A DNA stretch of 56,886 nucleotides, from contig CALWTR010000044.1 of assembly GCA_944384525.1 (NCBI GenBank), positions 1 to 56,886 on the forward strand, in the 5' to 3' direction. The DNA comes from an uncultured Clostridia bacterium. GTDB lineage: Bacteria > Bacillota > Clostridia > Oscillospirales > CAG-272. Of the stretch, positions 35,970 through 47,728 are shown in pieces. Under the pieces are notes generated by a model. That model ran no database searches. It saw only the letters and a list, made by a program, of their open reading frames with translations, and had not been told where the DNA came from. Each line of letters starts with the position of its first letter. Within the stretch, counting starts at the first letter, position 1. Position numbers and translations under genes: made by a program.

Positions 35970-36935
35970 ATGGTAAAAGTTGAAAATCTTGTAAAGAGGT
36001 ACGGCTCGAATTACGCGCTGAACGACGTTTCTTTTGAGATAAACGAGGGTGAGATAGTCGGGCTTCTCGGACCGAACGGAGCGGGAAAAAGTACCGCGAT
36101 GAATATATTGACAGGTTATCTGTCCGCTACATCCGGCAGTGCTTATATCGATGGAATAAGCATGGTGGAAAAGCCGCTTGAGGCGAAAAAGCTGATCGGA
36201 TTTTTGCCGGAACAGCCGCCCGTTTATCCGGAGATGACGGTGTGGGAGTATCTCAACTTCGTCTATGAGCTCAAGGGATGCACCCTGCCGCGCAAGGAGC
36301 ATATTGAGGAAGTAATGGACGTTGTCAAGCTCGGCGACGTGCGGGACAAGCTCATATCTCATCTTTCAAAGGGATACAAGCAGAGGGTCGGTATAGCACA
36401 GGCGATCATGGGCGACCCGAAGGTCGTCGTTTTTGACGAGCCGACGGTAGGTCTCGATCCTAAACAGATACTGGAAGTAAGAAACTTGTTGAGGACTCTA
36501 GGAAAGCGGCACACCGTCATTTTGTCTACGCATATCCTCAGCGAGGTGCAGGCGGTATGCGAGCGTATAATCATAATAAACAAGGGCCGGATAATAGCCG
36601 ACGAGAAGACCGAGGAGCTCACCCGTGCGATAGAAGATACGTACAGGTATGAGGTCAGGATATCCGGACCGCAGAAGGATGTTCTCGCCGCGCTCAAGAA
36701 GGTCAACGGAGTGACGGGTGTAGAGCGCACGGACGGGCGCGACGCGGACGCACAGATATATATAGTCGATACGGCGAAGGGGATCGATATCAGAAAGCCG
36801 CTGTTTTACATGTGCGCTGAGCACGGGTGGCCGATACTCGGACTTTCTCCGTTCGGAACGGATCTTGAAAGTATTTTCGTAAGGCTGATAGACAGGTCTG
36901 ATATCCAGATGAGACCGGAGGGAGGAAACAAATAA
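35970..36935 (+). CDS. ABC-2 transporter ATP-binding protein (GldA-like)
   Basis: GPNGAGKST, LSKGYKQR, DEPTVGLDP; alternative TTG start at 35949 just after GAAAGGGGG. Confidence 0.95.
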   Translation: MVKVENLVKRYGSNYALNDVSFEINEGEIVGLLGPNGAGKSTAMNILTGYLSATSGSAYIDGISMVEKPLEAKKLIGFLPEQPPVYPEMTVWEYLNFVYELKGCTLPRKEHIEEVMDVVKLGDVRDKLISHLSKGYKQRVGIAQAIMGDPKVVVFDEPTVGLDPKQILEVRNLLRTLGKRHTVILSTHILSEVQAVCERIIIINKGRIIADEKTEELTRAIEDTYRYEVRISGPQKDVLAALKKVNGVTGVERTDGRDADAQIYIVDTAKGIDIRKPLFYMCAEHGWPILGLSPFGTDLESIFVRLIDRSDIQMRPEGGNK

Positions 36936-37642
36936 TGCTCGCCGTTTACAAGAAAGAGATGAGGTCGTATTTCACGACGCCGATCGGGTATGTTTTCGTC
37001 GCAATATTCCTGCTCGTCGGGGGAGCGATGTTCAGTTATACGACGCTGTATTCCATGACGTCGAATATGAGCGCATATTTTACTTATATGATGCTGATGC
37101 TCATAATACTTTTGCCGATATTGACCATGAAGTCATTTACAGAGGAGAAGAAGATGAGGACGGAGCAGCTCTTGCTGACTTCGCCTGTTCCGATAACATC
37201 GATCGTGCTCGGAAAATTTCTCGCCGCGTACACTATGTTTGCCGGCAGCTTCATATTCAATTCACTGTACTTCCTTATCCTTTACAGGTATGCTGAGGTC
37301 AAGACGGGACTGCTCATAGGCAATATATTGGCGATGCTCCTTCTGGGTATGAGCTTTATAGCGATAGGACTTTATATATCCGCGCTTACCGAGAACCAGC
37401 TCGCGGCGGCTATCGGAACTATCGCCGTGCTGCTCCTTCTCCTCGGTATAGGACTTATAAACATGCTTCTGCCGGACAAATACTGGCTGAGATACGTTAT
37501 AGACTGTATATCCGTATTTACGAGGTTCCAGACTTTTACAAACGGATATTTTGATTTTGCATCGCTTATTTATTACTTGTCTATAAGCGGCATATTCGTT
37601 TATCTTACGGTGCGCGTTTACGATAAGCGCAGATACAGCTGA
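36935..37642 (+). CDS. ABC-2 transporter permease (GldF-like)
   Basis: KEMRSYFTTPIGY, TMKSFTEEKKMRTEQLLLTSP, IVLGKF; TAATG coupling with the ATPase. Confidence 0.92.
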   Translation: MLAVYKKEMRSYFTTPIGYVFVAIFLLVGGAMFSYTTLYSMTSNMSAYFTYMMLMLIILLPILTMKSFTEEKKMRTEQLLLTSPVPITSIVLGKFLAAYTMFAGSFIFNSLYFLILYRYAEVKTGLLIGNILAMLLLGMSFIAIGLYISALTENQLAAAIGTIAVLLLLLGIGLINMLLPDKYWLRYVIDCISVFTRFQTFTNGYFDFASLIYYLSISGIFVYLTVRVYDKRRYS

Positions 37643-37656
37643 CACCGGAGGATAAA

Positions 37657-45801: not shown

Positions 45802-46236
45802 ATGAGAAAAGTTGAAATATATACCGACGGTGCCTGCCGCGGAAATCCCGGGAGAGGCGGATGGGGAGCGATCCTCGTGTATAAGGGACACGAAAAGGAG
45901 CTCTCCGGCGGAGAGGCTATGACGACCAATAACAGAATGGAGCTGACCGCGGCGATAGAGGGGCTATCGGCGCTGAGGGAACCGTGCGAGGTCGAGTTGT
46001 ATTCCGATTCAAAATATCTTGTTGACGCCGTAAATCAGGGATGGATATACTCCTGGCAGAGGAGCGGCTGGCGCAAGGGAACGCGCGACGAGGTCAAAAA
46101 CCCGGATCTGTGGCAGAAGATATGCGAGTTGCTCCGGATACACCGCGTGAAGTTCATATGGGTCAAAGGGCATGACGGACACAGCTATAATGAAAGATGT
46201 GACGCCCTTGCCACCTCATACGCAGATTCACTGTAA
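45802..46236 (+). CDS. rnhA: Ribonuclease HI
   Basis: [48 protein letters not shown] upstream. Confidence 0.96.
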
Positions 46237-46249
46237 AAAGGAGAATGTA

Positions 46250-47728
46250 ATGAAAAACATATTGAAAAGGATATTGTGCGCCGCTATAGCGGTATCTTCG
46301 ATCGTGTCTTTACTGGCGCTGTCCTCCTGCTCGTCCGATACATTCAATTATCTGGGCAAGGATCTCAGCTCATATATATCTTTCGACAGATCGGATTATT
46401 ACGGACTCAATGTTCAGATCGAGCTCGACCGTGTGACGGACGAGGATGTGGATTTTGAAATAATACGCACGCTCGCAGCAAACAAAACCACCGCAAAGAA
46501 TAACGGAGCAAAGACGTATAATGCGGTAATAGGTCCCGGAGATATAGTTTATATAAATTATGTCGGATATTATCTCGACGAAAACGGAGAACGCGTTTAC
46601 TTTGACGGAGGCTGTAATTTCGGCTCTGACCCGGACGATCTTGAGATCGGAGCGGAGGAGGGGAGCGGTTTCATCCTCGGCTTTGAGAGCAATCTTATCG
46701 GTCATAATCCGCAGGAGACAACCGATAAATTCAGCGTATATACGAGCGGCACTGTCCTTGAAAACGATATAATCTATATAACTTATACGGACAGCGACGG
46801 CAATAAGCATACTAACCGCAGGGTCGATCTCTCCTCGGACGATCTTGATGCGGACTTCGGCGTAGGATTCCGCGATTTTATAATAGGTCAGACCGTGGGA
46901 GAGGAGCTGGAGGCAAAGGTATTTGACAATCCGGGCGGATTTGACTATCTCTATACGTCATGGGAGGTATCGATGCGCACCGAGGGCGAGGAAAACCTCA
47001 TAACTGTGACAACGTATTTCCCTGTAAATTACAGCAGTGACGAGCTGAGAGGCAAGGTCGCGTATTTCGACGTGTATATAAAGAATATAATCGACTATAA
47101 CGCTCCGGATCTTACGGCGGAGTTCATAAAGGACACGCTTAAGTTCGAGACCGACAAGACAAATGACGATGAAATAATAGCCGCTTACCGCGACCATGTC
47201 AGAGCTACGCTCGAAGATGAGTTCGATACCAGCTACCGCGATCTTGCGGATATGGCGCTCTGGGATGTATTAAAGAGCAATTTTACCGTTAAAAAATTGC
47301 CGAAGAGCGCAGTTAAGGCGGAATATAATTCGCTCCGTTCCGAACTTATCAGTTATTATAACAGTACGACCAATTACTCGTCTCTCGATGACTGCGCAGA
47401 GAGCCTTTTCGGCTATGACGAAAGCAAGTACGAGAGCTACACTGACTATCTTGACGAGGCGGCTGAGGAGGTCGTGACCGAGAAGCTGATCCTTTACAGT
47501 ATACTTAAGGCGGAAAATCTCTATCTTTCGGATGAACAGATGAATTCCGAAATAGACGGACTCGTCAAGGAGTATGCAGAATATTATTCTATGTCGGAGG
47601 AGCGGATACTCAGCATATACGACAGAGAATTCTTCATAGAGTCGGTGTATTATTCCTATGTGATGAATACCATGATAGATTTTACAAATGTGACCGTCAC
47701 CGGAAAGAGCGCGGACGTCACCAGATAA
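46250..47728 (+). CDS. Trigger-factor-like lipoprotein with FKBP-type PPIase domain
   Basis: Lipobox LSSC; GDIVYINYVG...FDGG...LEIG...FILGFESNLIG; FPVNYSSDELRGKVAYFDV...PDLTAEFI. Confidence 0.82.
   Translation: MKNILKRILCAAIAVSSIVSLLALSSCSSDTFNYLGKDLSSYISFDRSDYYGLNVQIELDRVTDEDVDFEIIRTLAANKTTAKNNGAKTYNAVIGPGDIVYINYVGYYLDENGERVYFDGGCNFGSDPDDLEIGAEEGSGFILGFESNLIGHNPQETTDKFSVYTSGTVLENDIIYITYTDSDGNKHTNRRVDLSSDDLDADFGVGFRDFIIGQTVGEELEAKVFDNPGGFDYLYTSWEVSMRTEGEENLITVTTYFPVNYSSDELRGKVAYFDVYIKNIIDYNAPDLTAEFIKDTLKFETDKTNDDEIIAAYRDHVRATLEDEFDTSYRDLADMALWDVLKSNFTVKKLPKSAVKAEYNSLRSELISYYNSTTNYSSLDDCAESLFGYDESKYESYTDYLDEAAEEVVTEKLILYSILKAENLYLSDEQMNSEIDGLVKEYAEYYSMSEERILSIYDREFFIESVYYSYVMNTMIDFTNVTVTGKSADVTR

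Follow-up and report, generated by a model that had tools for sequence, protein, structure and literature searches.

What are two lipoproteins built like trigger factor (TF), the textbook ribosome-bound chaperone of the cytoplasm, doing beside a gliding-type ATP-binding cassette (ABC) module, and do they work with it? The question is raised by a 56,886-nucleotide stretch of DNA from an uncultured Clostridia bacterium (contig CALWTR010000044.1, assembly GCA_944384525.1), hereafter the window, which encodes an ABC ATPase, an ABC-2 type permease, two GldG-like proteins, a long DUF4340 protein and two lipoproteins, here called A and B. An original prediction made from the sequence had listed these seven proteins as a same-strand run with TF-like lipoproteins at its end, and had proposed that the three surface proteins among them make up a surface complex that folds exported substrates or captures proteins or peptides. 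All seven genes were found on the + strand at the places given for them; as an account of the complete run the list fell short, an RNase HI gene (rnhA) between the two lipoprotein genes having been overlooked. Judged by predicted structure, A and B are real TF homologues with an extracytoplasmic anchor and without the ribosome-binding N-domain, and their genes hold a fixed position next to the ABC and DUF4340 genes in every species locus of one genus-level group in which the position could be judged.

The relationship to TF was established from domain scores, profile alignments and a structural model. Both lipoproteins match Trigger_C above its cut-off of 22.7 bits (scores in Table 1). Lipoprotein A is laid out as a lipobox, a degenerate FKBP region, an acidic helical linker and the Trigger_C domain, and lipoprotein B as an outer FKBP domain (aa ~90-284) enclosing a nested FKBP domain (aa ~167-247), followed by a C-terminal arm domain (aa ~285-488). 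The AlphaFold2 model of lipoprotein B (predicted local distance difference test (pLDDT) 76, predicted template modelling score (pTM) 0.60, built from only 7 alignment rows) was matched by Foldseek to E. coli TF (2vrh_A, 7e-12; 1w26_A, 1.6e-11), and its whole chain was aligned by VIA-align to TF 2mlx_A (Z 10.4, 295 residues aligned, model 40-487 against TF 114-423) and to chloroplast TIG1 (Z 11.4). Taken separately, the outer FKBP fold aligned with FKBP13 at Z 9.2 (root-mean-square deviation (rmsd) 2.8, 92/101 residues aligned), the nested FKBP fold with SlyD at Z 9.1 (rmsd 1.9), and the arm domain with the T. maritima TF C-domain 2nsa at Z 9.0 (159 aligned) and with MPN555 at Z 8.9. The TF-like FKBP and helical C-terminal regions that had been claimed for both lipoproteins are borne out by these matches, and the modelled structure, from which the absence of any FKBP or TF fold had been named as the result that would sink the idea, matches TF. 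In BLASTP alignments of A with B, the identity is 28% in the 150 C-terminal residues (6e-10) and 31% in the 198 N-terminal ones (2e-5), and their FKBP regions match by hhalign at 98% (E 1.4e-13); on these alignments the two are paralogues of one another.

Profile alignment of lipoprotein B to E. coli TF begins at TF residue 113, and, when PDB sequences were searched by profile, the ~100-aa insert of lipoprotein B fell exactly between TF residues 206 and 207. TF residues F168, F177, F198, Y221 and F233, which we take to line the peptidyl-prolyl isomerase (PPIase) pocket, correspond in the profile alignment to Y104, F118, F145, Y261 and F273 of lipoprotein B. Among 43 lipoprotein B orthologues the pocket-position residues are kept at Y104 (41/43), F145 (41/43), Y261 (42/43) and F273 (41/43), and the F118 position holds F in 22/43 and otherwise L, I or V. 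The GF(E) pocket motif is missing in lipoprotein A. Lipoprotein B appears to keep a TF-type aromatic pocket and may be catalytically active; lipoprotein A, with part of the pocket lost, is probably a binding-only partner.

Likeness to TF therefore extends from TF residue ~114 to its end, with the linker, FKBP-type domain and C-terminal arm domain in the same order, and stops short of the N-domain. Neither FKBP_C nor Trigger_N was matched by Pfam at E <= 0.1 in any of the eight block proteins, and against the tig model TIGR00115 lipoprotein A scored 38.0 and lipoprotein B 95.6 bits, both far under the cut-off of 180.2. Ribosome binding by TF maps to its first 118 residues according to work cited in the reference list of PMC2956729. 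The lipoproteins have a lipobox or transmembrane anchor instead: a lipobox is present in 73/73 lipoprotein A orthologues, and an N-terminal hydrophobic stretch in 67/69 lipoprotein B orthologues, at most 15 of them lipobox-like and the others beginning with a K/R-rich tail that leads into a signal-anchor helix, so both lipoproteins would sit on the outside of the cytoplasmic membrane. Because Pfam FKBP_C is silent on them, the FKBP folds of the window proteins are visible only in predicted structures and in relatives, FKBP_C being found in 18/30 family members and covering only about the first 55-67 of its 94 profile positions. Six of these 30 carry an extra N-terminal domain, FMN_bind in three (P0010, P0022, P0061) and Big_2 in three (P0108, P0127, P0128), which fits an extracytoplasmic location. 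The family is a large one, its profile matching 340 representative proteins at E <= 1e-30, of which almost all are full-length (510-680 aa). A canonical tig is encoded elsewhere in the genome (481-aa open reading frame (ORF), contig C19), with two ORFs 3' of it that resemble ClpP and ClpX when read by eye, so that A and B are extra copies.

Several known chaperones offer points of comparison. PrsA is described in PMC10986000 as a membrane-anchored lipoprotein acting after translocation. A and B resemble it in being membrane-anchored with a chaperone module predicted to lie outside the cytoplasm, and differ in their FKBP folds, PrsA having a parvulin PPIase domain; no Rotamase-family (parvulin) match was obtained for either lipoprotein at E <= 0.1. 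The chaperone module of PrsA presumably resembles the SurA/TF type. A substitute role for the TF-like lipoproteins in place of a missing PrsA was considered and ruled out, as a parvulin protein of PrsA size (254-288 aa) is encoded elsewhere in the genomes of 4/4 near-complete relatives; the window's own genome, 72% complete, showed no such protein. PpiD of E. coli is described in PMC2956729 as a membrane-anchored SurA-like chaperone and a proposed gatekeeper of the Sec translocon. It shares with A and B an N-terminal membrane anchor and a SurA/TF-like chaperone module, most lipoprotein B orthologues having the same type of signal anchor, and differs in its inactive parvulin domain, which is not of FKBP type, and in being a periplasmic protein of a diderm. 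We know of no link of PpiD to an ABC operon. SlyD, SlpA and FKBP26, which are among the structural matches, likewise have an FKBP fold broken by an inserted domain, but the insert of lipoprotein B is itself an FKBP fold and follows the helix of TF residues 198-206 rather than lying in the flap, where we take the insert-in-flap (IF) domain of SlyD to sit. PceT is a TF-like dedicated chaperone of the pceABCT operon, encoded beside the system it serves; it is cytoplasmic and serves a Tat substrate, unlike A and B, which are predicted to be exported and anchored. We infer that A and B work like PrsA or PpiD but have no parvulin domain, and that they are homologues of TF but have neither its N-domain nor a score within the range of true tig products.

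For analysis of gene order, an alignment of the long DUF4340 protein was scanned against contigs of one genome per species, which gave 80 loci in metagenome-assembled genomes titled Eubacteriales, Clostridia, Oscillospiraceae or 'uncultured Ruminococcus'. On the downstream side a locus was taken as judgeable if 5.2 kb or more follow the DUF4340 gene (n=63), and 67 had enough upstream sequence. Lipoprotein A, rnhA and lipoprotein B lie directly 3' of the DUF4340 gene, in that order, in 62/63 loci by phmmer, and in the 63rd (L036) lipoprotein A was recognised by profile; ATPase, permease, GldG1 and GldG2 lie in order upstream in 67/67. Median spacers are 15 bp (ATPase-permease), 21 bp (permease-GldG1), 7 bp (GldG1-GldG2), 11 bp (GldG2-DUF4340), 180 bp (DUF4340-lipoprotein A), 85 bp (lipoprotein A-rnhA) and 17 bp (rnhA-lipoprotein B). 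The surface proteins encoded at these loci are 26-36% identical to those of the window, and the flanks vary, RNase M5 being directly upstream in 4/58 loci and DpaA downstream in 20/60, at 315-4497 bp. In 13/13 further members of the genus, whose DUF4340 protein is short or divergent, the order is conserved down to rnhA and lipoprotein B, lipoprotein A being recognisable in 9/13. We read this as linkage because the order is kept in 63/63 species loci while the flanks turn over and the surface proteins are only ~30% identical. Lipoproteins unlinked to the ABC module in relatives, a result that had been named as refuting the idea, are not what this lineage shows.

Presence and absence follow the same pattern. 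In a sample of 101 genomes of the window's genus-level group, profile matches were obtained for the DUF4340 protein in 84 and for lipoprotein B in 94. The two coincide in 83 genomes; the DUF4340 protein stands alone in 1 and lipoprotein B alone in 11, and 6 genomes have no match to either (Fisher p 6e-5 at an odds ratio of 45, a p-value that overstates the case, related genomes not being independent). Ten of the 11 genomes with lipoprotein B only are at most 85% complete and one is 90% complete, and 6/7 genus genomes without lipoprotein B are also without the DUF4340 protein.

The DUF4340 protein supplies a possible connection in substance: shared handling of proteins is hinted at because its middle is related to the nested FKBP domain of lipoprotein B. 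The protein has 64 relatives at 28-36% identity, most of them 930-1100 aa long, and scores above the Pfam gathering threshold of 25 bits, which makes it a member of the DUF4340 family, as are 31/34 long relatives by Pfam. Its AlphaFold2 model (pLDDT 84.6, pTM 0.77) was compared with 48,161 chains by VIA-align, and the best match, to its middle region, was the PPIase domain of E. coli TF (2mlx_A, Z 8.6, rmsd 2.6, 77 aligned), together with PaFkbA (Z 8.4), SlyD (Z 8.4), SlpA (Z 8.3) and FKBP13 (Z 8.2); these matches lie at Z 8.0-8.6, with ~72-89 residues aligned within residues 259-548. FKBPs make up most of the best 50 structural matches. As ~75 residues are aligned across a span of ~285, the FKBP fold of the DUF4340 protein would be split by inserts, as it is in lipoprotein B. 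By hhalign, the nested FKBP domain of lipoprotein B matches two of the three internal repeats of the DUF4340 middle at 84.7% (P 6.7e-6) and 73% (P 3e-5), values that we regard as moderate, and the repeats match each other at 95%. The claim that FKBP-like segments are common to three neighbouring surface proteins is upheld by these fold matches and hhalign comparisons, the DUF4340 part being borderline; an FKBP fold in the DUF4340 middle is likely, not proven, and catalysis by it is unlikely. The short DUF4340 protein of G027, a genome of the window's genus, is without exactly this middle (residues 332-616). In some members of the genus (G134, contig C45; G099, contig C53) the long DUF4340 frame reaches ~1100 aa and profile residues ~370-459 are matched twice, which suggests an extra duplication of the FKBP-like repeat.

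The ABC and GldG-like genes that precede the lipoproteins resemble the GldA/GldF/GldG module of Flavobacterium johnsoniae. The best NCBIfam model of the ATPase is GldA (TIGR03522, 309.4 bits, under the equivalog cut-off of 402.6) and that of the permease is GldF (TIGR03518, 120.5 bits, under 288.5). GldG-like 2 exceeds and GldG-like 1 falls below the ABC_transp_aux gathering score of 34.7, and neither is matched by the NCBIfam GldG model; the two are paralogues, with tblastn cross-matches in locus L004 (2e-26), and an N-terminal hydrophobic stretch is present in 70/70 GldG-like 1 orthologues. The module differs from that of F. johnsoniae in falling below the equivalog cut-offs, in having two GldG paralogues and a DUF4340 protein, and in its setting, which is a spore-forming member of the Clostridia (GerA, DpaAB) with no Bacteroidota gliding or type IX secretion system (T9SS) context.

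Direct contact between A and B was assessed by prediction of the pair, which gave an interaction prediction score from aligned errors (ipSAE) of 0.44 (runs 0.44, 0.46 and 0.37; best of three controls 0.00), with at least 45% of contacts agreeing between runs and a partner pLDDT of at least 81. The ipSAE mark used is reached by 116/157 solved complexes and 2/215 mismatched pairs, and passes at or below 0.60 comprise only 18/157 solved complexes and both passing mismatches. The prediction lends weak support to an A-B heterodimer. Of the surface folding complex that had been proposed, the shared modules, the linkage and the co-occurrence stand.

Table 1. Features of the eight-gene block and its putative transcription signals (positions in the window)
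Feature	Position	Strand	Details
ABC transporter ATPase, GldA-like	35970..36935	+	321 aa; ABC_tran 113.8 bits
ABC-2 type permease, GldF-like	36935..37642	+	235 aa; ABC2_membrane_3 37.9 bits, ABC2_membrane_2 35.4 bits
GldG-like protein 1	37657..39171	+	504 aa; hydrophobic stretch at both ends; ABC_transp_aux 23.4 bits
GldG-like protein 2	39177..40841	+	554 aa; ABC_transp_aux 39.3 bits
DUF4340 protein, long, N-terminally anchored	40900..43653	+	917 aa; DUF4340 44.5 bits
Likely FKBP-fold middle of the DUF4340 protein	41674..42534	+	model residues ~259-545; split fold with repeated inserts; VIA-align
Perfect 15-bp G+C-rich hairpin, 6-nt loop	43659..43694	+	just 3' of the DUF4340 stop; no T-run on either strand
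Promoter-like site, extended -10 (TTGCTT, 16 nt, TG-n-TATAAT)	43752..43779	+	before lipoprotein A; read from sequence
Lipoprotein A	43913..45670	+	585 aa; lipobox FTSC; Trigger_C 33.5 bits
Terminator-like hairpin, 8 bp and T-rich tail	45686..45714	+	3' of lipoprotein A
RNase HI (rnhA)	45802..46236	+	144 aa; RNase_H 157.6 bits; NF001236 217.1 bits
Lipoprotein B	46250..47728	+	492 aa; lipobox LSSC; Trigger_C 46.3 bits
Intrinsic-terminator-like hairpin, 12 bp and T-run	47751..47788	+	3' of lipoprotein B; read from sequence

The reading that we favour, and hold to be about evenly poised between right and wrong, is that A and B are TF-type chaperones which, in this lineage, act together with the ABC/DUF4340 machine. 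The genes would then make up a lineage-wide, fixed envelope block of eight, in which five tightly spaced genes would provide an ABC ATPase, an ABC-2 permease, two GldG-like bitopic proteins and an anchored DUF4340 protein with an FKBP-fold middle. In A and B a lipid anchor, or in most lipoprotein B orthologues a transmembrane anchor, would replace the TF N-domain, and the two would serve, without need of ATP, as holdase/prolyl-isomerase chaperones with a function analogous to that of PrsA and PpiD. They would keep large beta-rich ectodomains (the machine's own or its cargo's) in a foldable state while these leave the membrane, lipoprotein A possibly as a heterodimer with B. A bolder form, which we consider improbable, is that the GldA/GldF-like module transports nothing and passes ATP-driven movement to the GldG/DUF4340 ectodomains, whose FKBP array, together with an A/B heterodimer, would take hold of exported polypeptides in the unfolded state and let them go again. 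NosDFY, an ABC-2 type module without a transported solute, is believed to power a partner outside the cytoplasm, which in turn acts jointly with the lipoprotein chaperone NosL; NosL is a copper chaperone and not a protein-folding one, and the pair is offered only as a functional analogy for an ABC module powering work outside the membrane.

A number of observations weigh against a shared task. All 63 + 13 loci come from one genus-level group and are not independent, and within them rnhA is kept in the block as strictly as the lipoprotein genes; since an unrelated gene is equally conserved, order alone does not prove shared function. The transcription signals also divide the block. The promoter that had been predicted before lipoprotein A is there, its extended -10 motif recurring in 74/77 loci (against 1/71 in the lipoprotein A-rnhA spacer), and a terminator-like site follows lipoprotein A in 46/71. 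Terminator-like sites follow lipoprotein B in 47/66 loci, and a terminator-like hairpin with a T-run follows the DUF4340 gene in 21/77. The hairpin without a T-run at that place in the window may stabilise the RNA or act as a processing site or weak terminator. A scan of the region for consensus promoters and terminators gave counts little above those of shuffled sequence (25 versus 18 expected; 14 versus 9.8). There are probably three transcription units, namely the five genes from the ABC ATPase to DUF4340, lipoprotein A alone, and rnhA with lipoprotein B, and co-transcription of lipoprotein A with the ABC genes appears unlikely. The FKBP assignment of the DUF4340 protein rests on a predicted model whose Z of 8.6 is borderline, best Z values of 7-8 being typical of models without a clear match; FKBP_C was found by Pfam in 1/34 long relatives (E 0.016), a Foldseek search of the whole model against the PDB returned only meaningless rows (probability <= 0.15), and BLASTP of the protein against either lipoprotein gave nothing significant (best E 0.22-0.25). 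The A-B score may reflect likeness to TF dimers, which are among the solved structures.

Further evidence on the same side comes from outside the lineage. A wider sample of 60 family genomes (59 from other genera, and G027 of the window's genus) was searched and the two lists of matches were compared by eye; among the matches listed, TF-like and DUF4340 matches lie within ~7 kb of each other in at least G027, G048 and G011, and beyond the window's group a TF-like lipoprotein gene generally has no ABC module beside it. Metagenome contigs were also scanned with short TF-like lipoproteins, which gave 80 loci (29 of >=15 kb, 52 of >=8 kb), and a GldF-like, GldG or DUF4340 match was found in 0/80. 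The proteins flanking these genes are heterogeneous, no common partner being found among 50 proteins around 25 short TF-like lipoproteins. An anchor is present in 77/83 TF-like ORFs of the metagenome loci, nearly all of these with a lipobox-like site, and Atlas neighbours are FKBP_C + Trigger_C proteins of 369-448 aa from Bacillota. The neighbourhood conservation across Clostridia that the original prediction had asked for as a check accordingly holds within the lineage and fails in the metagenome loci beyond it: TF-like lipoproteins are a widespread, uncharacterised family of gut Clostridia, and their link to the ABC module is lineage-specific. Two side observations concern this wider family. 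Polysaccharide deacetylase genes flank the short TF-like lipoprotein in L118, L123, L137, L142 and L160 (on both sides in L123, L142 and L160), a layout that may pair a foldase with its dedicated client. Other gut lineages encode short TF-like proteins as tandem pairs (L177, 9995-12441; L150, 8275-11059), so that duplication of the TF-like gene is recurrent.

These findings are what would be expected if A and B were general post-translocation foldases of the PrsA/PpiD kind and their adjacency to the ABC genes were frozen synteny, as for rnhA, an alternative that we take seriously while on balance doubting it. It would account for the spread of TF-like lipoproteins, usually without a Gld-like neighbour and among varying genes, for the Bacillota proteins just described, for the separate promoter-like site before lipoprotein A and for the equal conservation of rnhA. 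It is harder to square with a block that stays intact in every judgeable locus while both its flanks vary, with the absence of DUF4340 from nearly all genus genomes that are without lipoprotein B, and with an FKBP-fold module in the DUF4340 protein related to that of lipoprotein B. A general foldase is moreover already there, in the PrsA-size parvulin protein of the near-complete relatives. It must also contend with a different genus, that of G048, where a TF-like lipoprotein lies head-to-head with an ABC ATPase-permease-GldG-DUF4340 operon in 5/5 genomes. This lipoprotein is simpler (383-424 aa, with an un-nested FKBP domain) and the operon is of a different subtype, its ATPase being 43% identical to that of the window, and the layout is a second, independent arrangement.

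Alternatively, the module could move a non-protein envelope component (lipid, glycolipid or polymer), with the FKBP-fold parts serving as non-catalytic scaffolds or adaptors. The near-absence of FKBP sequence signal from the DUF4340 middle and the missing GF(E) motif of lipoprotein A are in keeping with such a role, which is nevertheless unlikely given the aromatic positions retained by almost all lipoprotein B orthologues and the full TF arm domain of lipoprotein B, a module known to bind unfolded chains. Capture of external peptides or proteins for uptake or adhesion, the other idea of the original prediction, is very unlikely: the known ability of the TF cradle to bind unfolded polypeptides and the Big_2 domains of some relatives would allow it, but an ABC-2/GldF-type permease with a GldA-like ATPase is by established knowledge an exporter-type architecture, and neither lipoprotein matched a substrate-binding-protein family in Pfam or NCBIfam.

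RNase HI, a cytoplasmic housekeeping nuclease, keeps its place between two exported-chaperone genes in every judgeable species locus. In the window rnhA ends 14 bp before lipoprotein B, whose ORF opens at 46172 and most likely starts at 46250 (MKNILKR...), and its product scores above the NF001236 equivalog cut-off of 160 bits; no second RNase_H match was obtained in 5/5 genomes searched, and rnhA is a passenger housekeeping gene, probably co-transcribed with lipoprotein B. A 75-aa ORF on the - strand (47803-48027) converges on the putative terminator of lipoprotein B; its product contains a hydrophobic stretch and ends in a Cys-rich tail, and Pfam gave no match to it. Nothing in 35000-48500 was matched by Rfam at E <= 0.1. 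Elsewhere the window is ordinary chromosome of a spore-forming Clostridia lineage (LysS, GreA, PFOR, GerA, DpaAB, U32 peptidase, Maf, Nth, RNase M5) from an assembly of 1.39 Mb in 56 contigs, and two of its ORFs, at 25974-27614 (+, 546 aa) and 30823-31443 (-, 206 aa), have no Pfam match at E <= 0.001.

A search of the literature found no paper on membrane-anchored TF homologues, subscription journals being largely outside its coverage. Within the same coverage, titles and the starts of abstracts yielded no function for DUF4340, or for GldAFG outside gliding, and those of the GldF/GldG/GldA papers listed, which concern gliding or T9SS, named no GldAFG substrate. In A and B the TF fold is, on present evidence, exported, tethered to the membrane, duplicated, and elaborated as an FKBP nested in an FKBP. 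For GldA/F/G-type ABC modules with DUF4340, which have lacked an assigned function ever since gliding bacteria were found to have them, the FKBP-fold module fused into the DUF4340 protein, the strict linkage to TF-type chaperones and the recurrence in a second genus together give a testable hint of polypeptide handling, and the lipoproteins are small enough for direct tests of prolyl-isomerase, holdase and binding activity. If ATP-driven movement were indeed passed to these chaperones, extracytoplasmic chaperones, generally taken to have no energy source, would here be given one, and protein handling would become the first functional handle on the widespread GldAFG/DUF4340 module.

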